Below the pieces are notes generated by a model that saw only the letters and a program-made list of their open reading frames with translations, was not told the origin of the DNA and searched no databases. From Lingula anatina (taxonomy: Eukaryota; Animalia; Brachiopoda): a stretch of 64,000 nucleotides of DNA. This document shows positions 31,767 to 57,547 of this stretch, piece by piece; position 1 is the stretch's first letter; every line of letters begins with the position of its first letter. The DNA is taken from contig CM120640.1 in NCBI GenBank assembly GCA_051362555.1, positions 1,240,001 through 1,304,000 on the forward strand, written 5' to 3'. The translations under genes and the position numbers were made by a program.

Positions 31767-34700
31767 TTTTTTTTTCTTTGATCTAAAAAAAGGAATCCCG
31801 CCATTTACGCAGGCAACAATGACGTTTTGTCCTTTATTTTCCGGGGCTTATCGCTATTTTTTTTTTCTTTTTCGTTTTTTTTCTGCACTCCGAGCCATTA
31901 CTCTTGACGTCGTTTATCAAATTCAGTTTATTAAAGAGAAACTGAACACGTGTAGGTGCCTATAGTGTAAATGTTCAGAATTAATCATCGTAACACGTAC
32001 CTGGACAGGCAGGTAAACACCAAGTGATAACGACATTAGTTCTGATTATTCAGAGATGAAAGGTAATCAAGTACGTGAACTGATACACAATTCAGTTGGA
32101 CTGACAGGTGCAAGAATACCGCTCAGTCTCAATACATCAGTAAACCTTTTAATATGTTTTAACTGTATGTCCCAAAAGGTACCACACACCTAAATATCTA
32201 TAGAACTGGGCCGTGGTTCCCTCCAATGTTTCTAAGGTCGTATATCGATCATGTTCTTATATTCATAATTTCCAGTCCATTACCCCGGGTGTAGCAGCTC
32301 GCACCAATTAGGGATACACAAACAAACACGTCAAACATGCTTTCACGACATGAACACCTTCCCCAAAGGGAAAGACTTGGGGTTATATCACATCTCCCCT
32401 ATCCTTATTGATATTGGGGAGTAGTAAAAGTGCTGCTAATCAGTCTGATTACCTTAACGATCTACATTAATTGAATTTAATTCCCTGCTATTACCAATAT
32501 ATTAGGATATTTTTCTCGTTAGAAGATGCCCTGTGGAGAGCGTTGTGGAAAGGAGGAAGAGAGGTTGATGTGAAGGTAAGAGGTGATATGGTTCTTGTTT
32601 AGTACTTATGTCTAAGTTTCACTCAAAAAACTAGGCGTCCATTTTTTTTTTTTGAATAAAATTCTATTGAAATTTCTTTTCTCTTGGTATAATAGTATAA
32701 TCATTGTTAAGCACCCTTAGTGTTTTGGTCGATTTCTTTTGAAATCAATGATATGGGATAAAACCCGTAAGAGGGAAGGTGTTAAGGGTTAAAATAAAAT
32801 CCTAGAAATCCAATGCCCTTAGAAAGAAAATAGCATTGTGAAAACGTCCAGCATCTGAAAGGCAGCTGGGACAACATTGTTAATGAAACTCCAAGCAAAA
32901 ATAACAGAGCGTGCTACCAATTAGCGCGATAAACTCGTGAACTCGCCACAGAAAATGCAGGAGAGATCGATTACACCCACCCTGGAATAAAGTTAAATTG
33001 CAATCAACTAGCGATAGAATAGAAAAGACACCCCTTGTCTCCACGGCTTGAATTAATAATACAACGTCGCTCGAGGAAATGATACCGCTGCGAATTCCAT
33101 TAAAACTGAGTTGAATGCCGGTGAAGTCCGTTGCTATTAGCTACGTTCAGACAGGACCTCTTTGACCGGTATTAAGTTCACTGGCGTCATCGGGTGAGAA
33201 GATTACAATGGGACAGTGAGGTTGATCAGTGACGCACTTTGGGCCGATTTCCGGTTTCATATAGGCCCGTTTGAACGCACACAGGAGGCGTATTGATGAA
33301 AACTGGGCGGAAGACTGATGTATAAGTAATAAAGATATCGTGCTTAATTCAGTTTTCAAGAGTCAATGTCAACTTCTCAATTCTCAATTTACGACCGATT
33401 TCATTATTGTTATACAATATCATTCTTTATGCGTTCGATGCGTTTATTTGAGACGGAATGTAATATTGGAAACTTCCATTAGTAAGAGTCCGGTTTTTAT
33501 TTAGACCATTCTATTGGAAGATAAAAGGTGGGATACAGCTCGATTAAATATAAAAAATGCCATACAATTAAGCGAGAAGAGGATAACATTTCAGCGCGTT
33601 CTGACAACAATTGACCGTTAATACAATAGCATTAGGACGGCCTAGAATGTTTCTCTGTAAATCGACATGATTTCAGCCATTACTTGTCAGCAAACACGGC
33701 GTGAGGTTCAGTATCAATAGAGCGAGCTGAACAAATACTCCCCGGGGGAAGGTTGGGGAGGCTTTCTTATACAGCAACTGCTGCTGTCGTCAGTGCATCG
33801 CAACAAACTAGAAGCCATATCGACGTAATGAAACATTTACATTGTTGTGGACACGGAGTCAACTACACAGATTGACTTAGCAGAGAAGTCTCTAACCAAG
33901 TCAGTGCGCCAGGTACCTGGGTACCTAACTTCGAGTTGACACGTTAAAACCTACGAGATATTTAATTTTGAGGATAATGTTTCACTCTTTACAGATGTGA
34001 TGCCACGAACCGTTCTGGAGGTTAAAGTGGACGGGAGTAAGTTCCAACAAAGTGAAATGAAAAGTGAACACTGGATGTCTTTTATCTGGTAACAGTCACG
34101 CCCCACCAAAATACATGGAGTTAGTTAGAGGAAACACTGAGCTCACCAGTACCTTTCCGGACAACAAACCAGAGCCGAGCACCATAAAGAGATCTGTTAG
34201 CAGACTAGGTAAGAAGCTATTTGTTTCTTGATGGCATTCTCATAGTAAAAACACAATTTCAGACAACTTGGGCTAGATTGTAGTCGGCTAGTGAAAGATA
34301 TTTATATACCATTCGCCATGTTAGTTGAGAATAGATAGTGGCAGTGGCTACTATCTGTTGGTGTAGATAATTCATTATCATGATAAGTTAAATGTCTGCA
34401 AATTTTGCATGTTGCTTGATGAAAATGATCACTGCTAGGACACACACCGTGATGGCGGATCAGAATAAGGAGATACGTTAACGGACTGTTGTGATAAGTA
34501 GAAGGACTGAGGCATGCTTACTTTTAGGAAAAATACTTACATTCAGTCTTTCTACAGTATATCGCTTTAAAAAGAAGATAAACTTTTAAAACATTTTATG
34601 ACAAAAAATGATAATAATAAAAAAAAGAAAAAAAAAATAAACCCGACAATAAAGAACTAAATTCCGGGAATTATTTGTGTGTGATACGGGGTAGTAAGTT

Positions 34701-35474: not shown

Positions 35475-37148
35475 ATGCCGCCCAAGGTGGAGATGCGGAG
35501 AAAACCGGACCGGCTGATGGTTGTAAACCGTCGAAACCGAATGGAAAACGTGCGCTTAGAGCAACGAGTGAAGGTCCTGGAAAAATCCACCACCAACAGC
35601 TCCCTGGAACTGACCAAAGACATGAAACAGATCGAGTCCGGGATTAACGCCATGAAGCAGACGACCGGGAGAAGCGCTGAGGGCCTCCCGCCAGATAGCG
35701 CCCAGGATAAGACACACACGAAGTCGGATTACTTTCGTTTCGGACCGCGGATCAGCGCGCGTCGCTTGCACAAATGGCACACTAAAGAAAAAGAGTTGAG
35801 TAAGTTTCTACAGAGCACCAGCGTTGCCACAGAAAGCATAGTGAATGACAAATCCGAGGCAACAAAAGATACGATAGATAAAGAAGAAGAAAACGACGAG
35901 GATGATGAAGACAACCGTGCCCCGTCAGTGATAAATTCAGAGCCAGTGACTGTACGCAATACTTATTTAAATCGACGCAAAAGTCTCAGTTGCACTGACG
36001 TTTTTCACGCGATTCGCCCAAATGTACAACTGTCTTCCTCGCCTCGTGATCGCCCACCTTCAGCTAACAATGTGTGCTCTAAAGAAGAAACGCACAGAGA
36101 CAAATTCTCCATATCGGAATGGGAGAAAAATGTAATACAAAATTACACAGCTGTGTTGACGAAACCCGTGAAAGTTAAAAGGACGTTCCGTAGACCCCTT
36201 AGCGCATTTTTGCCATCGGGTGAATTTCGTCCCCAGTCGGCGTGGTCACGGTCTCCAAGACGGCCCAAGTCCGCTCCGCCGACGTCTCAAACCGACGTGC
36301 AACCAAGGACGGGTAAATCGTTATGGGGGATAGCCAAAAATACGTTTTGCAAGGAATGGACGGTGGGTGGTGAGCCGCAGGTTTCAGAAAACAGCACAAA
36401 CACTCCAATTATGTCAGACGACCCCAAGGTTCGCTTGGCCAACGTGCGTGCTCACTACAACGGGGTTTCTAAACGTTTCGCCAAGAAGAGTGCGGAGCGC
36501 GAGGAAAAACTTTGGATTGAAATACAGAGGAAAGAATCTGGACTTTCGTGGTTTACTTCCCCGAAACCTGAAGGGAACGCTGTGTTACAGAACTATTTTG
36601 CCAGAAAATTTGCTCAACATTTAGCATTTAGTGCATTTTCGCAAACTACGCCGACGTCGGGCGGTTCAGCCACGGAGTCTGCGCAAACGTCAGGACAGAA
36701 TGTTAAAACGCCTTCTGCACAAAACACGACTGTGTTAACAAACGAGAAGACGCCAGATGAAAACGAAGAAAATGACACAACGAAAAATGGAGGCGGTTTT
36801 CGTCTTCAGAGGCGCATAACAAAACTTATGAAGGACTGCGGTACAAATGAAAGCGCTGAGAAGAAATCTAAACCCATGGCTCTATCAAAATCGGCAAGAA
36901 AACGTGAACTGGAGCAAATGGTGACGGAAAACACAATGGACGTGAAACAGATCGCTAAAAAGGAACAGTCGCGTAGATTACAGTCGCGCGTGTCCATGAT
37001 CATGGAAATGTTCCGTCTGAGCAATGCTTTCGGAGGAGGAAATAAAAATAACGATGATATTGCCCCATCATCTACCTCGGAGAAAAAGACAGATGATAAT
37101 AGTTTGAACAAGGTTGCTGCCTTACAAGCACCAAATGTTAGCTCATAG
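35475..37148 (+). CDS. Uncharacterised protein, paralog 1 of the five-gene cluster (557 aa; possibly CCDC190/DUF4697-like N-terminal helix)
   Basis: Long GC-richer ORF with ATG in CCGCCATG context, downstream of an acceptor at 35386. Candidate non-coding upstream exons exist, e.g. 33995-34208. It carries the shared N- and C-terminal motifs. Confidence 0.85.
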   Translation: MPPKVEMRRKPDRLMVVNRRNRMENVRLEQRVKVLEKSTTNSSLELTKDMKQIESGINAMKQTTGRSAEGLPPDSAQDKTHTKSDYFRFGPRISARRLHKWHTKEKELSKFLQSTSVATESIVNDKSEATKDTIDKEEENDEDDEDNRAPSVINSEPVTVRNTYLNRRKSLSCTDVFHAIRPNVQLSSSPRDRPPSANNVCSKEETHRDKFSISEWEKNVIQNYTAVLTKPVKVKRTFRRPLSAFLPSGEFRPQSAWSRSPRRPKSAPPTSQTDVQPRTGKSLWGIAKNTFCKEWTVGGEPQVSENSTNTPIMSDDPKVRLANVRAHYNGVSKRFAKKSAEREEKLWIEIQRKESGLSWFTSPKPEGNAVLQNYFARKFAQHLAFSAFSQTTPTSGGSATESAQTSGQNVKTPSAQNTTVLTNEKTPDENEENDTTKNGGGFRLQRRITKLMKDCGTNESAEKKSKPMALSKSARKRELEQMVTENTMDVKQIAKKEQSRRLQSRVSMIMEMFRLSNAFGGGNKNNDDIAPSSTSEKKTDDNSLNKVAALQAPNVSS

Positions 37149-38490
37149 TACATATGTACCGGGGTATGACGTATTTCCATTTACATCTTACGGTCAATTA
37201 AAACATAACGGCAAATATTTGTGCAGACTTCGCATTCAATAAGGCAGGGAGATTTCAAATATATATAAAGGTATTGATATGTAATCCAATACAGGTTCCC
37301 AGATTCTTTATATGTTTAGTGATGTTACAATGTTATTATTGCCCACAAAGAAGCGGTATTGATATCGGCTGAGATGGCGGTTTGGTCTTCGGTGGGTTCG
37401 TGTGCTGTTTGTCGATCATAGGCTTTTCTATGGCTACGTCATACACCAAATCGTTACGTTTAACATATCAGTTAATGATAACTAGTGTTGTGTTACATTA
37501 ATGAGATTTAGCTTGGTGCTGTATATTTTATGAGTAGTTCATGATGTACCTGTTAAACCAAGAAATATCTATCAGATCATTGTTAAATAAATAAATAGCT
37601 CCGTTTAGAAATTTTGTTATGATTACCATATACGACCTTTTCCGTGCATGCAGTCTCAATTTCCAACCTCCACGAAAAGGATTTTTATTTATTCCAAATA
37701 GTATCAAATAGATATAACACCTTAGCATTTCATTTTTGTTTTTATGCCGATATACAATAGAGCTTTTTTTCATGTATGTTTCCATGCAGCAAAGATAAGT
37801 TGGACTTGTTAACATTTCATTTATACACCGCGTGACTTCACAACCCTGTTTGTTTGTGTTCAATAACTAATTTGAGAATTCCCATACCTGTTAACAAAAG
37901 ACGGTCAATAAACCGATCAACAACCTTTTGCTCCGACTAGAATTTAAGGGGAGCGCTGCATTTCGACTTTGCTTTAATACTTAAAAATCTTCACCATAAA
38001 TATAGGAGAGAATTCTTGAAGTTTAAAGATTAACATGAATATTGTGCAAAAAGAACATTTTCTTTCAGTAATTTTGAGTGCTTTTAAGGAATGTTACTAA
38101 CTTTTCTCTTTTATCTGTATATCCGTCCCCTGAACGATATTTTGATGAAGTAAATCAATGACCCCGTTCATGGTTACGTTGTGTTAACAGTGAAGATTTC
38201 GGTCATTACCTCCTGTGTTCAACAGAGGACATAGATCTGATGGCAAACAGAGGCACGGAGGGAAATAGCCAGGAATATGTCCGTGAACTGGAGAGCTCTT
38301 TTTGCTCAAGTGTCATCATGTTTGTTAAATCAGTTTCCTACGGTTCAAGAAAGGCCGCAGCACAGTAAATGCTGCGTGGAGAGGAAATTGAAGGGGCGCA
38401 GTTTTCAAGTTTCGAATGGCAGGTTGTATTGGACAAGATGTACTGGCTAAAGTTAACTAAACCTTAGACAGGAGAAAATACTGTTAAGAA

Positions 38491-39918
38491 ATGCCGCTTA
38501 CAAGGAGGTTGAACACTCAATCCAAAAACGATATTTATGTCCAGAAACGCAACATAGCAGAAGATCACAGGTTGCAGAAATTTCTGGATGACATGGCTCG
38601 TAGAAAGGTGCTTATGTTAGCCAGATCTAAAGATCAGATAGAGTCCGTCAAGATGACTTTCAAACCCATACAAATGACGTCGGGACATTGTCCTCTGGCC
38701 AGACCACCCTCATCTCCGCGACGGAAAATAAGCCAAAGGCAATCAGAAAAGAAAACCGTGTTATCAGACCCTAGTTCGCGTGAAAAATCAAACGAGTCGA
38801 CAGATGCTGAGGCGATAACGACGGTGCTCCCGCCACCGGATTTGACTACAAAAGAAGTTACTGTTAGTTTCACTTCGGACGATACCGGAAGACCCGATAC
38901 GGTCACAGAAGGAAAGCCTTTTGCGCCTCCAGACAAACAACAGGGTTATTCACCTACTGTTCGCTTACCGAGTGTTTTTAGTACCGCTAAATTCTTAATG
39001 TCTAATTTAAAACACAGCCAGGACAATTCCACTGAGATTGGTGATACAAACAGCGATCCGCCGGATTTGCCGGATGCCAGCCGATCCTCAAGCCCGCTCA
39101 TTATTCCTGAGGACGACCTTGAGTTGACGTGCCTGGACGAGGCCTGTCTTGATTCCTCGGAGCACACTGTCCCGGTGATAAACTGGAAAAAGATCTACCA
39201 GAAAGAAAAAGAAGCCAAGCAAGAAATGAAAGCAAAAATGAAACGCGAAGAAGATGAGAGGAAGCGACTAGAACAGGAAGAGGAAGTGAAAAGACAGCAG
39301 CTTGAAGCTGCTAAGGCAGATGATAAGAAGGAAACGAAGAATAATGTCAAAGAAGCAAAAGAAAACGAGGAGCAGAAAAGTCCCCTTCTTCCTTATTCAA
39401 TAGCGTTATTTGCCTTTTCCTCTTTTGGGCAGCGAAAAGACACCCAGCAAACTGCCCCAGTAAACAAAGCGGAGGAGCAGACTCGGAGGATTTCTACGGA
39501 GCAGATTGAGAAAGAACGCGCTCGTTATTTGAAAGAAGCCCAATACACCCTTCGCAATAACTATATCGATAGCGGAAAGGGACGCCTTGACGACGCTCTT
39601 GCTTCAAAGAAACGCTGGGAGAGAGAGTTAAAAATTGAAGTTCCCTTGGGACTCATCGGTAGGAAGGGAGATTTGGCTCAAGATATACCTTTGTCTAAAG
39701 TTCGTATTCAAAGAGAGTTGAAATTACTGGTAGAACAAAATCAAGCTCATAGTAAGGCCTTTGAAATCAACAAAGCCAAAAAGAAAATTGATGAAAGAAT
39801 GTCGAAGTTCTGTTCTCTTTCACCTGCCCTTCCTGGCCCTCGTGGCGGTAGAGACAGCAGATCAGCAAGATCACCCTTCAGAGCGCCATCACGCTCAGCG
39901 TTTCTACCCAGAAAATGA
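38491..39918 (+). CDS. Uncharacterised protein, paralog 2 of the cluster (475 aa)
   Basis: Uninterrupted ORF with KRNIAEDHRLQKFL...TSG at the N-terminus and PLSKVRIQREL...IDERMSKF at the C-terminus, plus a central charged coiled coil. Confidence 0.85.
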   Translation: MPLTRRLNTQSKNDIYVQKRNIAEDHRLQKFLDDMARRKVLMLARSKDQIESVKMTFKPIQMTSGHCPLARPPSSPRRKISQRQSEKKTVLSDPSSREKSNESTDAEAITTVLPPPDLTTKEVTVSFTSDDTGRPDTVTEGKPFAPPDKQQGYSPTVRLPSVFSTAKFLMSNLKHSQDNSTEIGDTNSDPPDLPDASRSSSPLIIPEDDLELTCLDEACLDSSEHTVPVINWKKIYQKEKEAKQEMKAKMKREEDERKRLEQEEEVKRQQLEAAKADDKKETKNNVKEAKENEEQKSPLLPYSIALFAFSSFGQRKDTQQTAPVNKAEEQTRRISTEQIEKERARYLKEAQYTLRNNYIDSGKGRLDDALASKKRWERELKIEVPLGLIGRKGDLAQDIPLSKVRIQRELKLLVEQNQAHSKAFEINKAKKKIDERMSKFCSLSPALPGPRGGRDSRSARSPFRAPSRSAFLPRK

Positions 39919-40244
39919 TGACATAGAATTCAAACATTTTCGATAATCGTAAAGGACCATTCAGTGCCCTTTCTGGGATAAGTAAACATTATTCCTGTCC
40001 AATCATACCACGAGACAATGCAATATTCTATTCATGACTGCGTTAATAGAAATCAGTTTTATACTCAAGGCTCAGGGGAACACATTATGTCATTTACTAC
40101 AATTTTTAAGAATAATTTTAAGCAATCGCTAACAGTTCCGGTTATTTGTTTAATTCCTTCATAAAGGATCTTTCTTACTCGGTTTATAACAAGTTTAGTG
40201 ATAGAAATGTCTGATACAGAATCTAGAAACCATCAAGAAAATGT

Positions 40245-40353
40245 GCTGGTAGGGGTGGGGTGGAGTAGGGGTGGGGTGGAGTAGAGGTGGGGTGGAGTAG
40301 GGGTGGGGTGGAGTGGGGGTGGGGTGGAGTAGGGGTGGAGTGGGGGTGGGGTA
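40245..40353. repeat. G-rich (GGGGT/GGAGT)n tract with G-quadruplex potential
   Basis: Many consecutive G-runs separated by 1-5 nt. Confidence 0.85.
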
Positions 40354-40806
40354 GAATATCGGCGCTTCTGTACATAATCAGCACATCAGTCATCGTATAG
40401 CATAGAACATCTGTCCTTGAACCCACAACACTGCAATATACAGTCAATGACACGAGTAAAGAAATAACGAGGGTAATTGATTACCAATTAGTGCCCGGTT
40501 GACTCTGAAAACATTTACTCGACGCCAGTGCTTGTTTATAAGCTACTAAGACGGTAAAACAGCTACCTTTGTGTTACACGTGGAAGCAGATCTGATCGAC
40601 CACCTGTTTTTGTCAGCAGTAAATCCGGGCGTCTTTCAAGTAAACGAAAGGCTCAGTACTGGAAGTTTTGGAATTTTCACCAATCAGTCGATCTTTTACA
40701 TCTTCAATTTTAAATCTTAATGGTGCTTCTATTTAGGAAACATACTAGACAGAAAATATGCATCTTATCTGTGTCTACGCAGCAGAAAAATATAATCTCT
40801 AGTTCT

Positions 40807-40980
40807 ACCGATGTGACAGGAATGGTTGTCTGCTAGGAACCGTTGTCTGTTTCCTATTACATTGCACAGGTTACATTCGTCCCATATACTTATCCCAAAA
40901 CTCCTACTCACCCTAACCTGTACTAATCGTATTGGACACCGCAATTCCATTCCTAGGACTACCATTCCTGTCACAACGGT
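40807..40980. mobile_element. Small MITE-like element with imperfect TIRs and an internal CCCTAACC motif
   Basis: ACCGATGTGACAGGAATGGT at the left pairs with ACCATTCCTGTCACAACGGT at the right. Confidence 0.55.
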
Positions 40981-41544
40981 TCCAGAGGCCAGTTCGGTGA
41001 TGACGTCATTTCTGTGCCAAAAGTAGTACAGAAATGTGCACAGAATTAGTCAGGAAAAATATCTGTGGATATCTACGGAAAAAATTCTCTTTTGCCCTGG
41101 TAGAGGGTGTTGAAAATACAGACTGTCAGCGACTGATAGTCACCAAAATAATATACTAAGGCCATTTTGAAACACAATCTGTTGGAAATCTATCACCGCA
41201 ACTGCATTCGGCGTAAATTTATTCATACGCTCATTCTAGACAAACATTTGAAGACTACACTAAGTTTTCAGGGCCTTTAATAAAGGGTTTTAATTGTTTA
41301 AAGGGTTTATGGCTAAGCTGCTCGTGCTACTTTCATTGTTAAGAGTCAAGACAATTTCATATTGACTTATGTCGTCTTTCTCCATCATTTGAACAAACCT
41401 GGTAGATATAGAAAGATACCAACTTGTCGCTTATGATTTAGTTGCAACAGAAAAAACAATGAAGGTGCGTTGGAATTTAACAAACATGTTTAACTTTCGA
41501 AATGTATCTCTTTTTTGAGTAGTAAACGGTAAACAAATGTAACT

Positions 41545-41545
<1 letters not shown>

Positions 41546-41586
<41 letters not shown>

Positions 41587-41677
41587 TTTTTTTTTGTTTT
41601 CTGTATTGACTTCATCAATATGGATTGATTCTGTCCTCAGGTCCGTTGAGAGTTGGTGGTTAAGATGGGACTCACTC

Positions 41678-41725
<48 letters not shown>

Positions 41726-41940
41726 TGATGATTTCGCTAATATACTTCGGATGTTCACTATAAGTTTAAATAAAAGAAAAATTAATCAGTGTATTAAAAA
41801 ACAATTAAAATCTCTTTAAGCGCCTCCTATTTCATTCCTCTAAATGAAACATTCCTTCTGATAACACTGCACTAAGAATTATCTATTTTTTTAAAGAAAG
41901 GGATCACTTCAAAAGAAGAACAATATCTATTTCGCAAATG

Positions 41941-41973
<33 letters not shown>
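41546..41973. repeat. Microsatellite cluster: poly(T), (AAT)n and (ACT)n
   Basis: Poly(T) at 41546-41600, (AAT)n at ~41679-41721 and (ACT)n at 41941-41973. Confidence 0.9.
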
Positions 41974-43714
41974 GAAACATTTTCTGTCTGATTTAAAAAC
42001 CAGCTAATCTCGTTCTATCTTAAAATGTGTACAGAGTATTTTTGGCCGTGTCATACGTGTCTCACGGACTCTGCCGCCCACAGATTTCTGTGACAGAAAC
42101 ATAACAACAGCGTTTGTTTTCATACGGAACTTGATACGTGTAGGACATCAGTGAGATATTGAGGATAAAAATACGCCTTCACACTCTTCACAACTGTACC
42201 CCGAGTTGTAGCCGAGGGATTGTTTGCATTTAGCAGTACAGATCAAATGAACAGGTAAACGGATATATTATACCCCCAAGAAACCAATCTCATGTCACTT
42301 AATACACCAATAAACTTAACCTGCCGAACAGGATTTAACAGTAGGTCTTATAAAATTTGCTGAAGAGAGAACAAGCACGCTCTTTGTGTGTGCACTAAGT
42401 CGATATTTAACAAACAAACATATTACGTTGTTATTCAGATTCTTGTCAAGCAAAGCCCATCACTAACTAAACGTCTCAAGTGTCACATAATTTGTTGCAT
42501 TGAGTGCATCATTGAGCTATTAAAACATGACAAGTGTCGGGACTTTCACAGCAGGAGGGATTTGGGCAGATGATTTTTGTCCATTTTTGTGCCTATATAC
42601 AGATAGTAAAAGGCACACCTATTGGTGTCTCAGAGTCCGGTGAACGAGACGCGGTTGTTCAGCTTGGGAAAGCACACACTTGGGCTGTTCAATAAAAGGT
42701 AATTTGATACAGCGGCAGTCAACGGGTGATCTTCGTGTATTTGGACAGTTATCACTTTCATTTTGTTTCATCAAACAGGATAAGCGCGTAATTGGATTAC
42801 TGTTTGAAAAAGAGAAAGAAAGAAATGACATAACAGAACTCATTATTGGATCGCAGTTAAATGTCCTTTAGGGCGATGTTTTCGCTCTTAAGTCGCCTAT
42901 CAGAATTCACTTGAAGGACTTCATGACCAGAACAGAGAACTTGAGAGACAAAATAATCTATTCTGACTCTGGGTAAGTCGGGGGCTTTTTGTTGTGTGTC
43001 CTGGCAACGCCAAATGTTGGACTGTCGCTAGGAAATCTCGAGACGCAGTTTTGAATGGGAAAGTGTTTTTAAAGATCGATTAATCATATAAAAACAATAC
43101 TCTGGTAAAGAAAACAAGACGTCACGTGAAACTCTGGCAGTGCGTGGAAGTTAAATTACCCGGAAAGTGTTTTATGACTCAGAGAAAGCCGTATTGATTC
43201 TTAGCCACTGACAAGGAGGGGCTATAGACTGGGGACTAAACCTGTGAAATTGACTAAACGATTATGTTCACTTAGCAAACAATGACACCACATTGCTTTC
43301 TTGGTAACAGTTTTAACTATACGCCGTATGGACTATTGAGGCTATTGATTTCCAGTCGGTAATACTTCGTTTATGGCTTAATTAACCATTACCTTGAGAA
43401 CCGCCTGTGAGCAGTCGTAGCGCGATCACAAAGACAAGAAGACGTGGGGGTGTTACTGAGTCCCCAGGGTGTCTCCATGCCCGCATCGGAGGTTTTTTCT
43501 TCGGTCATTTTTCTTCGGTCTCAGAATTGAGAGTCATTTTACATAGGGGACAAAAATACTGTGATGTTAGGAACGCCTGTTTCAAGTCATGTCAATGAAA
43601 CAGATGGTGAACACTGAATGAGCTTGACTTACCCACGGAGTATATCTCACACGGTATTGCGTTAATATTCAAAAACGATTTTAAAGGAATATTTTATTGA
43701 AAACACCACCAAAA

Positions 43715-44737
43715 ATGAATGGGTGGGTAAGCACCCAGAAGGGGTACATGAAAGCCCGGAACCCAAAACCTAAATCATCTGAACTCAGCAAAATTCGGAA
43801 GCGCCTCCCCATTGCCGCTCACTGCAAGAGAAGCGTCCATCAGAAGAGCTTCTCTCTAGGGCAGGGCGCCTACTCCTGCACGACCGACCACGAATTCTTG
43901 GCTTACGTTCTCAACCGCAACGCCACTTCTCAGTTGGACCGGGTGTTAAAACAGACATCTCGGGAGGAGGTCAGCTACCAGAGGTTTCACAGGAGGGACA
44001 TTGAGAAGACCCACGAGCGGTCAGAGAGGCTCGGTCTGTCCCACCATGAAGTAGCCGAGGGTGGACACACGGCGGCGTTACCCGGAGCACTAACAAGAAG
44101 GGCCAGCATGCCGTCTTTGACTAGACAGCATTCCTTTGCCTTGGACGGGGCAAATGACATTCCTAACCGTTGTAAATCCGGTGGACCGACATCCAGGGGT
44201 ATTGCTAGATCTAATAGTGAGGGATTCAGTGTAACAGAGGGTCAAAGACGAGCATCTACAGCACTACCGCGCTCACATTCAACATTATGTCCCAGGGCAG
44301 CGAAAAAGGACGAAAGAGAATCTCCCGAAGGTTTGGCCATATCTGCAGTAGAAGAAATAAACTCTCCTGCTGCTACCACCTATCTTCTACCAACAGTCGG
44401 TAGGATATCCCGAACCTCGACCAATAAAGAAAAGGAGCCGCCACAACCCGCAAAATCCCCGTCTAAGAAAGTACGCCTCTCAAAGCAAAACGATAGCTTC
44501 TCATTAGCAAAAATTGACCTAGCCCTAGACTCAAAGGTAAAAGGGTTTTTGACTCAACAAAGAGCGTTTAACAAAGACCATTCTCTGCCAAAGGACATAA
44601 TTGCCAAGACGGAGCAATCACGAAATAATTGTCAAGTAGTTTTAGCGGAGAAATACAAAATGTCTTCAATTGCGCGAGAAGTGCGGAAGAAGCTAGGGCT
44701 GGACAAACCGGGCCGAAAACTGTGGGAAATTCACTAG
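43715..44737 (+). CDS. Uncharacterised protein, paralog 3 of the cluster (340 aa)
   Basis: The first in-frame ATG is at 43715. Motifs LAYVLNRNATSQLDRVL and LDSKVKGFL are present. A candidate upstream donor lies at ~42973. Confidence 0.8.
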   Translation: MNGWVSTQKGYMKARNPKPKSSELSKIRKRLPIAAHCKRSVHQKSFSLGQGAYSCTTDHEFLAYVLNRNATSQLDRVLKQTSREEVSYQRFHRRDIEKTHERSERLGLSHHEVAEGGHTAALPGALTRRASMPSLTRQHSFALDGANDIPNRCKSGGPTSRGIARSNSEGFSVTEGQRRASTALPRSHSTLCPRAAKKDERESPEGLAISAVEEINSPAATTYLLPTVGRISRTSTNKEKEPPQPAKSPSKKVRLSKQNDSFSLAKIDLALDSKVKGFLTQQRAFNKDHSLPKDIIAKTEQSRNNCQVVLAEKYKMSSIAREVRKKLGLDKPGRKLWEIH

Positions 44738-45502
44738 GTGGAATCATTGTACCAGCTAATGGCAGCTACTGTTCTTTGTTCTTGCAAGGATTGCACGAAG
44801 AATAACCAAGCATGTGTGCCAAAAATCCCTGTTCCTTGTGCTCCGTGTTTTGTCTGTAACCATTCTGATATCCTTTGTGACATTCGTGTGTATACGGCTG
44901 CATTGCCTTATTGATCGAAGAAACAGTTACTTTTTCTGACTTAATTGTAACATAGTATACATTCTAGGGCTTTTAGACCAAATATTCTAGCACGTACACG
45001 TTTTTACTTCAAATATCTTTGTTTTTTGTTTTCAAACAGCCGGTGTTAGCTTTAGAGAAACAAATATTATTCTACGTTGCTTGGTATATGCTTTTGTTAG
45101 GTATTTGATTATCAGTAAATGAAGGTAATTGAAAGGCCTGTTCAACAAAGAAAATAACATTATATATTGACATGAGACTTAAGGTAAAGCCATTGTTGAT
45201 AAAGTCTCACGGAAATTAACTCTTTTTTCCTACTTTTTACTCTTTTTGAACGAATAGCATGCCTTGGGGCCCTTGAAAGAAATTGCAACAGTTTTATGTG
45301 TCTTTTGAATCGGGGCAATCAATAGATAGATATTAGAAAATTATAAGGAGGTCACCATTGTATTTTTTTTCTTTTTTTTAATGGGCGGGGGGGGGGGGGG
45401 AGCGGAGGGCTTTATTCATTATAAAAATGTATATTGCTGGGGGAGATTCACCTGTGTAAAAGATAAAACCATTTAGATATCATTTCCACAAACATCTTTG
45501 TG

Positions 45503-45506
<4 letters not shown>

Positions 45507-45588
<82 letters not shown>

Positions 45589-45690
45589 GAACGCATGATG
45601 TTACTGTAACCGATGGTTTCATGGATGTTTTTATTTACATAAAATTTATTTACATGAAAACACCAATCTGCTGACATCTTCAGGCATAGG

Positions 45691-45742
<52 letters not shown>
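45507..45742. repeat. (TA)n and (TG)n microsatellites
   Basis: (TA)n at ~45507-45585 and (TG)n at ~45694-45742. Confidence 0.95.
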
Positions 45743-45747
<5 letters not shown>

Positions 45748-47401
45748 GTTATATTGTATATGTTGTACTATCAATATCATAGGGACTAATATCTAAATTT
45801 TTTATTGGACAAAACATAAACACATGCATTATTTGTGTATTTGTCTACACAGATTTCACGCCTGGGTTCAGAAATTCAATAAACATACGTATGATATGGT
45901 GTCAAAAGTGTTGGAGAGGTCTCTTCTGGTCATTTAATTCCGTGATTGGAAACCCAATACCGCCGGTTATTGATCAGTGCTCAAGTGACTTGGGTCAGAA
46001 GGTGGCACTGGAACTGAAGATTTCATTCTGTCGATTTGAAAGTCTGGCATAGGCATATCTTTTTATTTGGCCAAATGCCGGACAGAAAGTTGCCCAGACT
46101 TTAAAAACTGATTAACTGAGGAAAGCTGGTTAAATATATTTATATCGGTGAAAGATGTACCTGTGTAAGCTGATCAATAAATGAAAATTGGCAAAATACA
46201 GAATGGTAAAGGGAAAGAGGAACTTGGATTTTGACCCTGGCAATAAGATAAAATATTTCAAAAAATATCTTAGAAATTATACTTTGAATTCGAGGTTAAT
46301 ACACCATTTTGACATTTAAAATTTTCATCCATCAGATAAACAGTTCTTTCTGAAAGTTCAAAGCTCTACGGTATAGTTTTTACTGAAACGTTTTATTTAA
46401 AGATATTGTCTCTAAAATAATTAAAAGAGAAATATCACGTCACATGTTGTCCAATTTTCTTACATAAAACAAAATATTGCTCACAACAGCAGCAAATTGA
46501 GCATATTTTAGAATTTAATGTACTTAATCTACAAAAATGACCCTGCTCCAATTCATCATCTAATTCAGATCTGCCATAAGTCAATATATCACTTTGATAA
46601 TCTTTTATTAGTAGTATTTTGAAAAGAGAAATACAAGAATTACACGATTGTTACACAGGTAAAGATACAGGTGTATAAGCTTCCATCACCGTCACACAGC
46701 CGATTACTATATAGATCTCTATCAATCCGAACAAATAACCTCAGGATTGATTATTTTAACCTTAAAAAAGACCGTTCGATCTATTATGGCTCATTATACT
46801 GATTGATTTTTGGATCAAAGCGGCCACGGGATGTTGAATTGCGTCAACATCTGTATCTAAGGTGTCGTGAGACCAAGTGAAGTGATCGGCCTGGTTACCT
46901 GTAACATTAAGTAACGTAGTTTTTGACATATGTTATAACCAGACGGTGAAGCAGCTGACCGACCTGAAAATAACACTGCAGTAGACATGACCAATACTGG
47001 CAATCATGAAATGATGGGGCGAGATTTGAGTGGACGGTACCTGACATTGGTCATCAGAGAACCTGGCACCTGTCATTAAATTATGGGTCTGAAGAGGTGA
47101 TAGATGTAATCACAGCAGTTTTCTAAAATGGTTATTGAAGAAAACAGCAGGCTGCGCCAAATCACGCACACAGACTCAGGGAAATCGTCATTATAACTGG
47201 CTTTCACTGGTTGTTAATACATCATAGCAGGAACTTCATATTCTACTTATCGGCAATGTGCATATTATATTGGAATAGTGCCACGGTAACGTTAAATCAC
47301 TGTGTGCAATAATCCAGAATCAATAGAGAAATCTTGGGACCTAGAAACCGAGAGTAGAAATAGAATCTTGACATTCTGCAGAAGAAATTACAACAGCAAA
47401 G

Positions 47402-50297
47402 ATGTTTTTCTTGGTAAGTGGGATTTTTCTGTAATCACGGATTTGAAGGCAAAACGTTATATGTGTTATACGCCATATCTTTTGATTTATAGATTTAAAA
47501 AATTCAAATTAAATAATATTCTATATCGATTATTGTATGTGATTATATAAAATGCAACATTAATTAATTTAATAATTATAAACCACAGAATAATTGAATC
47601 AGAATGCAAGAAAATTATGTTAGCGCAGTACGTTTCTAGAGGGTCATTTCTTTACCTAGAATAGTGATCTTTCATAAATATTGCTCACTCATTTTATTCA
47701 TAATCGTGCTGTTATGCCACTAACAACAGGAGCTGATGCAATGGGAAAATATGAAAATATCCGCAGTTTTTTTTTTCCAGTTTGGACTACTCAGTAAGTC
47801 TCTACCTCTCCATCACTTTTTCAAACAAACATATTGTGTGGCAAAGAGTCAAGAGTCGTCGGTGAAGGAATTTAAGCTTTTAGTTTTCTTTGTGGTTATT
47901 TTCTTTTAAAAGCATCTAAATCTGCTTTACCGTTGTTAGCCTGAATAAGGAGTATTTACTGTATTTAACTTCGAGTTAACATACTTCGTGTATGCTTTCT
48001 TTAAAGAAATATACGTATTTACTTTTTTCTCTCCCGACTTAAGCCAAATACTTTTAATAGTCTGCCTTTACTGGTCAAATAAAAGTGCATTTAGATCTTA
48101 GCTTTTAAAAGCATGCATGCTGAAAATAAATGGGGATTCGCAATCATGAAGACAGCTAGTATAAATACTGTGTTATATTTACTATTACATTTACATTTCC
48201 ACGCAAGGGGCACCTTATCTATTCATAGGCACGGCGTTATTTGAGAATTGTAACAGATTAACTACCACAAGTATCATCTACTTCACCATACTTTCAACAA
48301 ACAGTTTGCGTTAAGGGGCATTACATAAGTATATCATCAAGATTTTGTGTACAGTTCAGATTAAACGACTTTCAACGCAGATTCACTTTTCTTAAAGTAT
48401 CGCGCTTGAAATAAACTACAACTCCCCCACGTGGACCTAATGGAAGGACTTTTTATAATCTTTTATGAGTGAAACCACACAAACGCTGTGACATGCATTA
48501 TAATTGTTATGATATTAATCACCTGACATGTGTTGAAGGCACAACAACACCCAAACCCAATGAATCGAAGCTAATGGACAATAAAGCACCATATATTTAA
48601 TTGAGTCAATGTGGACCGACAAAATGTGTGGAAGTGAAAGGTGAAAACGCGGACAATTGTTGACACAATATTTGCTCAGTAGCTGCCATAAGCAATGCAA
48701 ACTTCTCGACACGAAATAGGGAGAAAATAGAATAGTCTAAATAACCAGTTCAAATCTGGCGTGGATGGAGTAGCGGTAAGGGGGACGGGGTCTGCTTGGG
48801 AGGTCGTTCTTGAGATATAACACGTTTGATTTTATCAGTTTATATGTACTTTTAGTTTTCTGCACACCAGAGACTCTCAAAAGATAATTAGACTTTGGTG
48901 TTTAAAGTGTGGTAATACTTGATAACGGGATAAGTATAGGAATAATTACGAGTCAAAGGATGGTATTATATGCCATCAAAAAGTATTGGAAATCCTATGA
49001 CTGATCTTCACATTGGTTGACTCTCTCTTTTTTCCTGTAGGTGAAGGAATGTAAGCCACCGCGCTACCCCGTGCCCGAGAAGACGGCAGACGACATGTCC
49101 AAAGGTCAAAATAATTCGTCGAAAGCCAAAAAACATCCCGACGCGGGAACGTGGTATGACGGCGACTTAAAAGACAACGATGACGAAGTGGTTGTTATAC
49201 CGTCTCCCAAAGAAGAGGCGGCATTTCGTCAGGCAGAAAAGGATAAAGATCTTAATTTACCGTATAAACGAGACATGTACTCCCTCAAGTTGCCTTTACC
49301 TCTATTTTTCTGGAGCGACAGAGAGCGTGAAGCGCACGTGCTTAATCAATGCGAAAATGCTAAATTTGGTAAGCTTATCAGGCACTTTCAAGAGGAGAAA
49401 AACATGAATACGAGACGTTTACGACTCGAAGCAAAACTTGTCAGAAATCAGGCCTCAAAGATTTTTCCAAATTTTTATGCACCGGATCTTGCTAAGCGTC
49501 GGACGGAATCGGCGCCGCCGTTGTCGCCAAAAGAGAATAGAAGTAGAACCCCAAAACGACCAAAAACTTGTGTTGCCAGGGAGGGCACGCGATCACTATC
49601 CCCAGAACAAACCAGTGAAAGTGATAATAACGAAGACGATGATGAAATAGACCCATTTATAGCCGAATTCAATACACTGTTTAGTAAACCGGAGGCAGAC
49701 GAAAGTTCGGAAGTATCTGGCGAGGCTTCGAGTTCAAGCGTAAAGGGCGGGAAATGTTGGAGGACCACCCCAAGCAGTACTCCTATTGTAACACCTTCTC
49801 CAAAAAATGCACGAGTGGCTTTTTCAAATCCCGGCACTGGCAGGCCAGCAAGAAGCCAATCTGCGTTTGCCGTGAGAAAAGAACGCTCATACAAGAAAAA
49901 TCCCGAGGCCGCAAGATGTCAGTCCGCCGTACCATCTTCCAAGACGGGCAACTCCCTAGATTCCAGTTCACCGAGACCTGACGTTCATCCGATAAAGCGG
50001 TCCTTACACAATCGAAGACCTTCCTATCACGATCCGATAAAAACTGCATATTTGCTCAAACAAGAACTACGCCGGAATACAAGACGACGACTGGTGGAGT
50101 CTCCCAAACCGGAGTTTAACATCAAACAAGAGGTGCAGAACGAAAAATCAAAATTTAAGAATATTCAGGAAAAGATACATGTTTATGTTGAAAACTTGAA
50201 AGAATTTCAAAAACCCCAGCTGAACAAATGGTCTGTGAAAGATTTTGAAAGCAAGTTAAATTTACAAGATAAGGTGGAGGAAGTTGCATCCTCATAG
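47402..50297 (+). CDS. Uncharacterised protein, paralog 4 of the cluster (~400-422 aa)
   Basis: The main exon 49041-50297 follows a strong acceptor (TTTTTTCCTGTAG). ATG TTT TTC TTG|GTAAGT at 47402-47413 would splice in frame (MFFL-VKECK...); otherwise translation starts at ATG 49095. Motifs EAHVLNQCENAKFGKLI and IQEKIHVYV are present. Confidence 0.8.
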
Positions 50298-52736
50298 CTA
50301 CACACACATACACAGTATGTGGACACGTTTCAAGCTTTAAGATGATTATTTATTCTAAATAAAGGTAATTTATTTTCATGTATCATCGACTTGTTTTCTT
50401 TCTTGATGGGAAAATCTATAGTTTCACTCGTATCAGAATTTTTTTCGCACTTGTTGTTCTATGAATTGCTCTTTAACTTCTTAATTTTCTAGGTAAGGGT
50501 GATCATAAAGGGTTACAATACCCTTAAGATCAAGCCAGCAAATAAATGCTGAGCAATTTAAGGAAATTCATCATTCCAAAATGAAGTGTTGCATAACATG
50601 ATTAAAACCTACAACATACATTACGTACATTACAACGGTTAAAATTGAGGTCTGTTCAGACGAATACCTATTTGGACTGGAAAGCTGGTCATAACTCGCG
50701 TGACTTGATGGCTGAACTAAGGATAATAACCTTCAACCACCGTTTTTTTTTTCGACCGATTCCATGAGTAGGGTGGTCTTCGTCATGAGACCAAGGCTGT
50801 GGAACACTGTTGCTCAACTAACGCATTTCCAAATCCTATTGCACTGGTGAACAGAGAGCTTGTGCTCCGTTGTCACAATCACAATCTCAACAAGGCCGAG
50901 ACAAAATTGAGAGCGAGAGAGAGAGAGAAAGGGGGGTTAGGAGGATTTGATCACAGACGTTTGATAATATATTTAAACTATTGTAGCGAAAGTGCTTAGT
51001 GAATGGATAAATATTCAGATAATACTCGTACATTAGAAGCGAATGAGTCGTAGAACTAAACGGGAACTGAATACTTTCACGCGCATAAAGCTGCCATAAA
51101 AAAAATCTATCAGGAAATATTTGACATGGATAATCCATAGATAATACTGCTGAAGTGGAGTTATCGGTATCAGTGTCTCTGATTAAACATCATACCGAGT
51201 GCCAGGGCTCGTAGTGAAGGTGTTCAGCTGAACCTGGGGCCCGATCACATCATTTAAACGATGTTTTTTTTTCTATTTTATACGGACATTTATATCGGAC
51301 ATTTTCTTTGGTACTGGATGAGGATTGGTTTAAGGTTTCTGATAATTCAATTAGAGGGGGTGCAACTTTGGTGAACGGCATAAAAAAGTAAACAAAAGTA
51401 AAATATAAGAAGAGAAAAGAAATTTTGGCAAAAAATTGGGCTTAAAAAACTATCGCACTTTTTAGTTGGGCGTCTTCTTTATCAGTATTATCCACACTAT
51501 ATATTCCATCTTATCAAAAATCTCATTTCGTCAAGATTTTCACGTCCTCTACTTCTGGCCAGGCCGTCGTTTGTAAATATCGATTGTTTGAACAGTAAAA
51601 TCAATTTAAAGGTATTTATTTTAGATCTAAGCTTTAGCATACAATTTTCTTATGGATCGTTTGTGTAAAGAGGGCCGCGTGGAGCAGTTTATTAGGGTTT
51701 GTTAGTCCCCCTTCGATAAAAACATGTTTTTGAAGTAAAGTATCAATTTGGTCGGCAAGTACCTACAACCTTGTGATTTTCAGAGCCCCAAGATTTCAAA
51801 AGGATTGTAAATTATTGAATTAATTTCAAATTGAACGATATGTTTAAAGTAGATACGGGCGGCAATAAAAGAAGGCATTATCCCGCTTAGCCTCCCATCC
51901 CACGGCCAGTAGACGTTTGTTGGTAGAATTCAAAATCGGACTTGTACCAACGGATTAATATTTGATGTTGATCCGATGAATAATGGATTGTATTTGGCGG
52001 AGATATATCATGCGGTGGTCAACTGTTTGCACAAACGTTCTCTAATTGAAATTTGAAAATAATTCACTGGCGATGACAGCTCGACATACAATTATGTGTA
52101 CATTGCCCTGAGTCTACAAAGATATTACACAAGCAGTTTGTATTCGTGGTACTCTAGAGTTATAATTTATGGGACCACTGTGGAAAAGTAGGTACAAAAC
52201 AAACCCTTTTGATTTTGCTACGGAGGGGACGCCAGTACTGACTTGGCCGGTCGCACACAGTGTGAAAACTCAATATAACAGATAAAGCCTGACGCAATCC
52301 CCTCTAAGCCCATCGCAAAACATGAACAGGGGGAAATTGAATTTTCCGTAGGCAAACTTCATAAGTGATTGCTTCACGACGAATTGCTACAGCGACGTTG
52401 TTTGTGTGACAGAGGGACGTGCCGTCAGGAATAGACACTAAAACACGAGCTCGGGAAACCGGCGTATGTGACTGTGTACATTTTCCCTGCGTCCACACAC
52501 ACGTGAATGTTGCGCCTGGTTTGCTCAATGTTCTGTACCGGGGTTTTTATTGGTTGGTTCAGTATAGCCGGAAACTGCCGATTGAACATGAAAGAAAGCA
52601 CCATTGTCATGGCCAATGACTGGCGTGGTAAGCGACCAGACGAAGACTAACGAGGGACACACAAACTAACCAGGCAACGAGATTACCTGTTAATATGTTC
52701 TTAATGAGATGTTTAACCTCGCCCAGATGAGGTTTT

Positions 52737-52968
52737 ACTACAGCGGCAGCATGTGACATGGGTCCCTGTCAATATCGTCGCTACCGAAAAAAACTTGACT
52801 ACAAACGCTGGTATAAGTATGAAAATGATTTTGTGGTTTCTCGATGACTGATACTACAACGGCAGCATGTGACATAGGTTCTTATCAATATCGTCGCTAC
52901 CGAAAATAACGTGACTACAAAAGATGGATCAAATACATGTATGAGAATGATATCTTGGTTTCTCAATG
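52737..52968. repeat. Diverged ~116-bp tandem duplication just upstream of paralog 5
   Basis: ACTACA.CGGCAGCATGTGACAT...TCAATATCGTCGCTACCGAAAA...TGACTACAAA starts at 52737 and again at 52853. Confidence 0.85.
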
Positions 52969-53015
52969 AGTGAAAGAGTATTTTCAGTAGACACCCGTGT
53001 GTTTGGAGCTGAAAG

Positions 53016-54377
53016 ATGAGAGCTAGAACAGAAAACGAAATTCGAGCAGAGGTAAGGAACTCGTACGAGACGAAACATCTCCGTGGAAAATTAGACAATT
53101 TGGATCACAAAAAGTTAGAACTCGAGTACAAGCATCTCCGCCAAACTTCTGCCCTGCGTGACTCTTTCCACGAGTCCACTAAAACAACGGGGCTCAGTCC
53201 CCACGCCGTCAGACCCAGGAGACACTCTGCTGCCATGGTGGACTATCAGAGCAATGTGAGGCCGTGGTTATATTTCCAGCAGCTACAGTTACGAGGGGGC
53301 GTGGGGAAACTGGATCGTATTCAGTTTGAAAGACTGGCAGCCGCGGCGGCAGCTAAGAGAGCTGGGAAAAAACAGCAATTATCGCATCAGCAGACAAAAC
53401 CATCCGTGGTGAATAATGCTAATAATTATATATCCCAAAGCGACAAAAAATCATCCCAGGAAAATGTTAGCTCTGAACAGGAAAGCCGCATCAGTAGTTA
53501 TGTTCACAATACCTTGACGGAGTCGCCACAGAAAATGTCATCCCACTTAAAAAAGCCTTTATTCCCGCAAGCAGCAAGACTACAATTTCCGAAATCAGCC
53601 GAACAACGCACGGGTATTATCAGTAATTTCCCTAGAACGACATTTGTTGAAGAACAAATATTCCTTTCCTCTAAGAATGAAAACAAGAAACAATCTCCAG
53701 AAAATAAAGAAAAAGAGGACAAGTCACACTTGCCGGACGAAAGTGTCAAGCAAGCGGTGACTAAACGTTTACCACCACAGACGATAAGAGCAACTTCTTC
53801 AAGAAACGCACAATTTCGTCACCACGGAAGGCGGTCAACATACAGCGGGTTCACTGAAAAAGAAAGAGAAGAATTTAAAAAGAAAGAAATGGAAATTTTG
53901 CGCCCAAAAACGTCTGTTATAAGAAAATTTCAAAGAAGTTTGTCGTCCATCAGCGGCGCAGACGAACCGATTGAAAGGCCTCATACCGTTGCAGCTGACG
54001 AATCAGGGAACGATGATTTTGATGCTCAGTCAACAAAAGCTCCACCAAATAAACCAAAATGGATGCAAAATTACATTAAACCACAAGAAAGGTACAAAGT
54101 CGATAACTTTTTATTACTGCGGCGCGAAAAATTACGAAATGAAACAACTCCGATGGAAACGCCCTTTGGCTGCAGCAACGAAGTTGTCCCCCTGAATACC
54201 GCTTATTCAAAATCTGCGAGGAAACGCGCCATGGAGCAATTAAAGATTGAATGCGAAAAAATTAAAAACGAAGAGAAACTTCCAACAGTTGTGGCAAACG
54301 TGCAAGATAAAGTGAAGGAATTTTTAGAAAAAATTGATGCTTATACACATCACAATGAAGAGGAAGATATTTCATGA
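53016..54377 (+). CDS. Uncharacterised protein, paralog 5 of the cluster (453 aa)
   Basis: Uninterrupted ORF with EVRNSYETKHLRGKLDNL...TTG and AYSKSARKRAMEQL...VQDKVKEFL. AATAAA signals follow at ~54660. Confidence 0.85.
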   Translation: MRARTENEIRAEVRNSYETKHLRGKLDNLDHKKLELEYKHLRQTSALRDSFHESTKTTGLSPHAVRPRRHSAAMVDYQSNVRPWLYFQQLQLRGGVGKLDRIQFERLAAAAAAKRAGKKQQLSHQQTKPSVVNNANNYISQSDKKSSQENVSSEQESRISSYVHNTLTESPQKMSSHLKKPLFPQAARLQFPKSAEQRTGIISNFPRTTFVEEQIFLSSKNENKKQSPENKEKEDKSHLPDESVKQAVTKRLPPQTIRATSSRNAQFRHHGRRSTYSGFTEKEREEFKKKEMEILRPKTSVIRKFQRSLSSISGADEPIERPHTVAADESGNDDFDAQSTKAPPNKPKWMQNYIKPQERYKVDNFLLLRREKLRNETTPMETPFGCSNEVVPLNTAYSKSARKRAMEQLKIECEKIKNEEKLPTVVANVQDKVKEFLEKIDAYTHHNEEEDIS

Positions 54378-55157
54378 GAGGCTAAACTCTCTGAGGCTAT
54401 GAGCAAACATACGAACCGGAAAATAATTTTAAACTTACCAATATTTGTAGCACAGGTGAAAGGTGTCATGACAGATGACATTATAGTGTCAATAAGGTGG
54501 CAGGAATGACGTTAAATCATTAAATGCCACTTTATAAAATGTCATTGACCTGGATACCGGACAACTTTTCTGTACCAATTTCCAGTTTTCCTAACTAAAT
54601 TTGATATAACCAAACTTTATGTGCGGTATTGACTTTCTTTTTTACCTATAAAATTAAATAAATAAATAAATCAAATGACGTTGGCACAACTTAAACTTAA
54701 AAAGCGTTGATATGGAGCGCTAATGTGTTTTTAACTGCCAACAAGGAGCCGTGTATTGTCAATATTAGTTTGAATTATTTGCCCGGAAGAGTATTCAGTA
54801 TTGTGCCTTTAAAATGTTATTACAACATGGTCTGAATACATCGATACGGGGACAGTCTGTTTAAATGAATTTTAAAGTCTCAAACAGCTATAGACCTTTT
54901 CCTCCTTAAGTAATCATCATAATTTATGCATTCAGGGTCGGCCCAGGTTTCTGTAAATAGAAGGGCTTGGGGGGGGGGGGGGCATGGTCCGAGAGAGAGA
55001 GAGAGGGGGGGGGGGAGGGGGGGAAGGCAAATGACAACATTGTATCAAGGAGTTTCAACACGTTGATAACACTAGAGTACTGTTTACTGCAGTCTTTTCT
55101 TCTTCTCTTTTTTACCTATTAGAGTAGACGGAAAATCATGGTCAGCTTTTTTCCAAA

Positions 55158-55306
55158 TCACGGACACATGATATAGAATTACGGACACATGATATAGAAT
55201 TACGGACACATGATATAGAATTACGGACACATGATATAGAATCACGGACACTTGATATAGAATTACGGACACTTGATATAGAATTACGGACACTTGATAT
55301 AGAATT
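55158..55306. repeat. 21-bp minisatellite, 7 copies
   Basis: (ACGGACAC[A/T]TGATATAGAAT[T/C])n. Confidence 0.95.

Positions 55307-57494: not shown

Positions 57495-57547
<53 letters not shown>

Follow-up and report, generated by a model that had tools for sequence, protein, structure and literature searches.

A tandem array of diverged genes in Lingula anatina from an undescribed, apparently spiralian protein family with a predicted kinase-site signature

Introduction

In the brachiopod Lingula anatina, a stretch of 64,000 nucleotides (assembly GCA_051362555.1, contig CM120640.1, positions 1,240,001 to 1,304,000; called the window here, and all coordinates refer to it) contains five open reading frames (ORFs) on the plus strand, P1 to P5, between an IBA57-like gene and the GSKIP gene. 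Are these five unrelated orphans or diverged copies of one gene, and what could their products do? An earlier reading of the DNA letters, the sequence-only reading, had described ORFs of 557, 475, 340, about 420 and 453 codons and had proposed that they are an old tandem family of two-helix proteins with a disordered linker, which automated annotation would take for five unrelated hypothetical proteins. The ORFs are indeed present in these sizes, P4 being a frame of 418 amino acids from stop to stop, and the homologues that we found are labelled as uncharacterised only, apart from apparent mis-annotations mentioned below. Here, we describe that the array is real and old and belongs to an undescribed family, and that a kinase-site signature is recognisable in the sequences of the family and of P1.

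Results

Similarity of the five proteins

At the DNA level no repeat of at least 25 nt joins any two of the ORFs, in line with the lack of visible similarity noted earlier. The proteins are only weakly similar in pairs, the best blastp match among them having an E value of 0.04, and in a local-shuffle test of the ten pairs only P2-P5 (1/100) and P3-P5 (2/100) beat the shuffles. Since this pairwise evidence is barely above chance, it was the use of foreign homologues that made the family link clear. A phmmer search with P1 against 1.84 billion representative sequences (E up to 0.001) gave 50 matches, one being a 99% identical Lingula anatina protein, LOC106168691 (XP_013403309), and 49 others, referred to as the homologues, with identities of 22-36%.

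Hidden Markov models (HMMs) of the N- and C-terminal motifs were built without any window protein and run against all six frames of the 64-kb window. The N-motif HMM gave 64 bits with P1, 33 with P5 and 24 with P2, the next-best frame reaching 5.2; with the C-motif HMM the same proteins scored 64, 13.5 and 12.3 bits and the next-best frame 6.0. P3 (4.1 bits) and P4 (4.5 bits) were within the six-frame noise of the N-motif HMM. An ungapped N-motif matrix of 46 columns, derived from the same foreign rows, had its best window in all five proteins at the very asparagine from which the sequence-only reading had numbered the motif. The scores were 46.3 for P1, 19.6 for P5, 18.9 for P4, 8.9 for P3 and 4.0 for P2; none of 1000 shuffles reached those of P1, P5, P4 and P3, whereas 107 of 1000 reached that of P2, whose match is carried by a T-S-G segment outside the matrix. 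Of 12,002 six-frame windows, those of P1-P5 alone reached a score of 4, and no such score was found among 18,147 homologue windows located past residue 150 or among 3,951 windows taken from six E. coli proteins, MukB and SbcC included (maximum 1.6). The homologues have a leave-one-out minimum of 26.6 on this matrix, and P2-P5 all lie below it.

The N-terminal helix with its invariant Asn is thus detected by HMM in P1, P2 and P5 and by the ungapped matrix alone in P3 and P4. The residues listed earlier for this motif (N1, E4, hydrophobic residues at 8, 12, 15, 33 and 37, D or Q at 29, T-[TS]-G at 43-45) are found in the translations, but P3 has an alanine at position 4; T-[TS]-G follows the helix in P1, P2 and P5 and is absent from P3 and P4. 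The C-motif could be substantiated for P1, P2 and P5 (0/300 matrix shuffles each), but not for P3 (265/300) and P4 (144/300); the register proposed for it in P4 ranks first among 374 windows. The heptapeptide SKSARKR is identical in P1 and P5, as had been noted. One diverged tandem family, the central claim of the sequence-only reading, is borne out, since foreign-only HMMs and matrix beat the six-frame and coiled-coil controls. Judged from these motifs, P2 and P5 are almost certainly members, P4 is very probably one and P3 probably so.

Homologues and taxonomic range

Thirty clusters of matches were looked up, of which 9 carry a species name and 21 do not; 20 further clusters are outside this look-up. 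All nine named clusters are spiralian (Lingula, two bivalves, three gastropods, two annelids and a flatworm) and no vertebrate is among them, so far as seen apparently a spiralian range. The genera beyond Lingula are Sinanodonta, Pinctada, Littorina, Nucella, Patella, Owenia, Capitella and Macrostomum. LOC106168691 and the hypothetical proteins of these eight genera are true homologues of P1, and those of the named genera are all unannotated or mislabelled: two members from Macrostomum (P0060, P0061) are called 'protein disulfide-isomerase' in UniRef and one from Patella (P0039) 'serine/arginine repetitive matrix protein 2-like', both apparently mis-annotations. All homologues were retrieved with P1, and the set is without orthologues of P2-P5.

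No Pfam model reached its cut-off for P1-P5, their motif segments or the homologues, and the ESM Atlas, queried with a P1 homologue as a whole and with its residues 5-118, gave a best feature score of 0.77 and no family. A word-index search with the N-helix alignment returned just four already known, query-like proteins, which is a weak negative. In the literature searched (CCDC190, tandem disordered families of Lingula, RPxSA) the family is undescribed and six homologue identifiers are not mentioned; supplements beyond that of PMC7441323 could list members.

Architecture of the proteins

The members of the family are basic; a conserved helix lies near the N-terminus, and the middle part is predicted to be disordered. 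The net charge is +16 to +28, 73-96% of the linker windows are predicted to be unfolded, and no stretch hydrophobic enough to serve as a signal or membrane helix was found in the proteins. Both motifs are present in 42 of the 49 homologues, as judged with profiles built from those same sequences; they are 120-771 amino acids apart, with the C-motif at most 95 residues from the end. For P1, AlphaFold2 (AF2) with a 49-row alignment predicted confident helices at residues 11-64, 95-129, 213-229, 472-487 and 490-520 and gave low confidence elsewhere (predicted template-modelling score 0.30); the N-terminal block has a predicted local distance difference score of 81-95, and residues 213-229 form a short conserved mid-linker helix amid four RPxSA sites. 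Single-sequence AF2 of P4 gave the same plan as P1: the N-motif falls on a long helix, the middle is predicted with low confidence, and two helices follow towards the C-terminus.

The two helices and the disordered linker postulated earlier are supported by these predictions, but P1-type members have more: a second N-terminal module, mid-linker motifs and RPx[ST]A sites. The second module, with D78, W101 and E105 as nearly invariant columns of the 49-row alignment, is found among the five in P1 only, the profile matches to P2 and P5 stopping at model position 72-73. Two mid-linker motifs, present in P1 and in 20/49 and 24/49 homologues, are absent from P2-P5. An internal N/C repeat in P1 (29 nt, 76%) was considered as well and rejected, the N-matrix scoring the C-regions at -1.6 or less.

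Putative CDKL5 sites in the linker

RPx[ST]A was found 70 times in the linkers of the homologues, compared to 1.6 times in local shuffles; the sites are present in 38 of the 49 proteins and cluster at 30-60% of the protein length. P1 has four of them. R, P, S/T and A are each needed, since changing any fixed position abolishes the excess: in the 49 homologues RPx[ST] with another next residue occurs 23 times (16.5 expected), RPx[not S/T]A 5 times (6.5 expected) and KPx[ST]A 4 times (1.2 expected). The wider pattern RPx[ST][AGPS] was counted 109 times (7.7 expected); P1 has four such sites, P3 and P4 have none, and P2 and P5 have one each, in the tolerated form RPx[ST]S. Proline-directed kinases were discarded as the source of the signal, because neither [ST]P (232 versus 266 expected in the 49 homologues) nor Rxx[ST]P is enriched.

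The pattern matches the peptide rules described for CDKL5, according to which R, P, S/T and, directly after it, a small residue are required and K cannot stand in for R (PMC6293279). The same source names the microtubule and centrosome proteins MAP1S and CEP131 as substrates, and in Chlamydomonas the CDKL5 orthologue controls flagellar length and phosphorylates the basic, tubulin-binding tail of IFT74 (PMC12711092). From the agreement of the linker pattern with the CDKL5 rules we infer regulation by a CDKL5-type kinase and a function as microtubule tether. Related kinases of cilia, the MAK/ICK group, prefer similar sites. Like the family, MAP1S and CEP131 carry RPx[ST]A sites in regions that are basic and disordered, and the pentapeptide RPLSA of P1 is like the MAP1S site quoted in PMC6293279. 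They differ from the family in that there is no sequence homology and in that the family has several sites, clustered between two conserved terminal helices; moreover, MAP1S and CEP131 are validated substrates, whereas the sites of the family are putative ones.

History of the array

In a tree based on 66 columns of the window proteins and the P1-retrieved homologues, P1 paired with a foreign protein (99/95) and P3 grouped with P4 (96/92), both on long branches; the rest was mostly unresolved. Of the two subgroups that had been suggested, P3/P4 was thus recovered, whereas a P1/P2/P5 clade was not resolved. One clade for P1-P5 was neither supported nor rejected (p value of the approximately unbiased test 0.28). 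If the five genes are one array by descent, the pairing of P1 with a foreign protein means that the duplications predate the split from the species of that partner. Two metagenome contigs, L001 (4.9 kb) and L002 (7.2 kb), carry a homologue as one uninterrupted ORF; no second family-sized ORF was found within their flanks of 1.4-4.1 kb. Within Lingula, P1 differs from LOC106168691 at eight amino acids, all of them outside both motifs, and so are all seven non-synonymous read variants of P1; three synonymous variants are inside.

Transcription and exon structure

Transcription was followed in raw-read runs deposited under the same species label, X1-X3 being three stranded poly(A) runs. In these three, P1 had plus-strand reads at a depth of 1-4 and P3, P4 and P5 at a depth of 0.07-1.8, with almost none between the genes. 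P2 had no reads in X1-X3, X4, X7 and X8 and a mere trace at its 3' end in X9. Four of the five genes are thus transcribed at low depth. The likely non-coding first exon of P1 is followed by a GT donor after 34208, and a pyrimidine-tract AG acceptor ends at 35386; the P4 frame begins directly after a strong splice acceptor (AG ending at 49040). No splice-junction reads above the listing threshold were seen for these genes. Each of P1-P5 looks like a gene with one coding exon, with splicing predicted from sequence.

Some minor features accompany the genes. Between the P4 acceptor and the first in-frame methionine is an out-of-frame ATG followed immediately by a stop (49049-49054, plus strand). 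Reads of opposite orientation directly upstream of P3 (43148-43801; X2, X3) may represent an antisense or divergent transcript. At 40945-40979 many RNA reads align over a part of their length, with loose ends on both sides in four runs, which is likely a dispersed repeat transcribed elsewhere. The first P1 reads begin about 2.7 kb downstream of a palindrome resembling an X-box (30969-30982); the count of such sites in the window is at chance.

Discussion

What could such proteins do? Tentatively, and with somewhat less than even confidence, we propose that P1-P5 are tandem duplicates, strongly diverged, from an unnamed family known so far from spiralians, and that its members may be flexible tethers on the microtubules of cilia or neurons, switched by CDKL5-type kinases. 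The N-helix would bind a partner or take part in a coiled coil, as would the C-helix pair, and the positively charged linker would bind the acidic tails of tubulin and thereby grip microtubules. Phosphorylation of the clustered RPx[ST]A sites would loosen this grip. The setting would most likely be ciliated or neuronal cells. P1 would represent the full-length form and P2-P5 reduced duplicates that keep the docking helices; with neither the second N-module nor the canonical kinase sites retained, the duplicates would be regulated differently.

Several observations weigh against this proposal. P2-P5 have no RPx[ST]A site at all, and the 70 sites of the family are not 70 independent events, since related homologues count the same sites again. 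PDB sequence searches gave no match under E 0.1 to axonemal or other chains; fold searches of the PDB gave generic long helices alone (best Z 6.2). RFX X-box-like sites in the window are at chance level, the RNA depth is low (0.4-4) and the runs are without tissue information. Word-index searches with P5 and P4 found no homologue, although these are weak negatives, and the place of P2-P5 in the family rests on short motifs because their own orthologues were not found.

The same proteins might instead act as scaffolds at other places than microtubules, such as the nucleus or the vicinity of membranes, and be substrates of CDKL5 or of other basophilic kinases there. Basic disordered proteins are often nuclear, and RRx[ST] is enriched in the family as well (87 versus 39.5 expected). 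CDKL5 is reported to have nuclear and RNA-binding substrates, too (PMC8634139; 10.64898/2026.04.07.716766). However, the strongest and most specific enrichment is that of the CDKL5 pattern, whose first validated substrates are microtubule and centrosome proteins, and we regard a scaffold elsewhere as unlikely. A different doubt concerns P3 and P4, which could be a separate pair resembling the true paralogues P1, P2 and P5 by chance, as basic helices. Their HMM scores in the noise, the missing T-[TS]-G and a C-motif not above shuffles would be in accordance with this, and so would matrix scores below the leave-one-out minimum and the score of 4.8 that P3 retains without the Asn column, level with SbcC (4.5 under the same treatment). 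But the clear members P2 and P5 are below that minimum, too, the matrix windows of P3 and P4 are on the same Asn at scores that no shuffle attains, and none of the control windows reaches 4. Furthermore, both genes are on the same strand, between P2 and P5, with a single coding exon and the same architecture, and we consider an independent origin of the pair unlikely.

The family could also be an invertebrate expansion of vertebrate CCDC190, and the array would then consist of new members of a named family. The sequence-only reading had been reminded of CCDC190/DUF4697, the latter being a name that we take to stand for PF15768 (CC190), and the N-terminus of vertebrate CCDC190 presumably resembles that of the family. 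As in the family, CCDC190 (C1orf110) has a helix at the N-terminus and thereafter a long stretch of poor conservation, and the N-helix of one homologue matches positions 10-56 of the CC190 profile, its N-terminal helix, with an E value of 7e-4. In addition, a study of tumours lists CCDC190 among genes that were lowered jointly with those of motile cilia (PMC6444505). This match is confined, however, to 47 of the 270 profile positions and to one of 41 homologue N-segments, and its 20.1 bits are below the Pfam cut-off of 27; at the cut-off there was no hit in the five window proteins, ten motif segments and 49 full-length homologues. Another segment gives as high a score (21 bits) with Rab11-FIP3, a coiled-coil family that is unrelated, the nine named clusters include no vertebrate, and no match of the C-motif, the T-[TS]-G motif or the second N-module to the CCDC190 profile was seen. 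The proposed identity was not upheld, and kinship with CCDC190 is a lead of rather low probability. A resemblance of another kind exists to lophotrochin and trochin, which likewise have conserved motifs so far found only in spiralians and a candidate ciliary role (PMC7441323). A place of the family among the 37 spiralian-motif genes of that study (Wu et al. 2020) was considered and rejected: the supplements searched contain no motif or identifier match, and the 37 listed oyster proteins were without the family motifs in a text search and by eye, with long sequences compared in part.

Tandem arrays and kinase-regulated disordered scaffolds are already known kinds of systems. New are two conserved motifs (four in P1), not represented by any Pfam model, which unite dozens of 'hypothetical' proteins from four or more spiralian phyla. 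The enrichment of CDKL5 sites offers a testable hypothesis for the role of these orphans. Most ciliary targets of CDKL5 await characterisation, and the family supplies candidates for its natural substrates; members are present in the tractable animals Capitella, Owenia and Macrostomum. The array suggests that tandem duplicates of disordered proteins can drift far and yet keep short docking helices. It is tempting to go further and to imagine an ancient spiralian superfamily of two-ended CDKL5-site tethers, possibly reaching CCDC190, with several paralogues per animal that tune motile cilia of the lophophore and the larval ciliary bands; the Lingula array would then be the full-length form and four stripped-down copies without kinase control. 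We hold this wider picture to be doubtful.

Gene layout and neighbouring features

The positions of the genes, motifs and flanking genes are compiled in Table 1.

Table 1 Genes and protein motifs of the array and the genes on either side, in window coordinates.
Feature	Position	Strand	Remarks
P1	35475-37148	+	557-aa ORF, one coding exon; full-length family member
P2	38491-39918	+	475-aa ORF
P3	43715-44737	+	340-aa ORF; weakest member
P4	49041-50297	+	418-codon stop-to-stop frame; first Met is codon 19, at 49095
P5	53016-54377	+	453-aa ORF
Likely non-coding 5' exon of P1	33644-34208	+	X1 reads in bins 33644-34191
P1 N-terminal helix and T-T-G motif (aa 12-70)	35508-35684	+	AF2; 64 bits, foreign-only HMM
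P1 second N-terminal module (aa 78-115; D78, W101, E105)	35706-35819	+	alignment, AF2
P1 cluster of four RPxSA sites (aa 193, 240, 252, 263)	36051-36275	+	
P1 C-terminal helix pair (aa 469-520)	36879-37034	+	AF2; 64 bits
P2 N-helix with T-S-G	38524-38700	+	N HMM 24 bits
P2 C-motif	39688-39825	+	C HMM 12.3 bits; matrix 0/300 shuffles
P3 N-helix (sole family motif)	43886-44050	+	matrix 8.9 bits
P4 N-helix	49317-49481	+	matrix 18.9 bits
P4 predicted C-helices	50064-50210	+	single-sequence AF2
P5 N-helix with T-T-G	53031-53207	+	N HMM 33 bits
P5 C-motif	54201-54341	+	C HMM 13.5 bits
IBA57/CAF17-like gene, upstream flank	26257-29405	+	several exons; non-family; Pfam
GSKIP gene, downstream flank	56321-58535	+	two exons seen; non-family; Pfam

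The upstream flank was identified by a match to Pfam CAF17_C, the C-terminal barrel (E 4.6e-14, at 29115-29405), and a weak one to GCV_T (E 0.023), the downstream flank by two matches to GSKIP_dom (E 5.8e-14 and 4.4e-12). Directly upstream of P5 is a 76-bp direct repeat (52736-52927; 88%, spacing 116), and 3' of P5 is a 21-bp tandem array (55156-55306). A 291-bp unit occurs twice at 31188-31766 with 99% identity, which is either a recent duplication or an assembly artefact.

Farther upstream, a plus-strand frame of 353 codons (947-2005), which encodes a reverse transcriptase domain and also matches ALKBH8_N, is the 3' part of an element of the LINE (long interspersed nuclear element) type. A multi-exon gene on the plus strand (11796-14360) begins with a PAN domain, followed by cysteine-rich exons for which no Pfam match was found at E 0.01. 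An amino-acid transporter gene (Aa_trans) occupies about 16000-24900 on the minus strand, and an exon-like piece is present in several tandem repeats within its region (24302-24930). At 20361-21900 a unit about 0.8 kb long is present in at least two almost identical copies, which show up as repeated translations.

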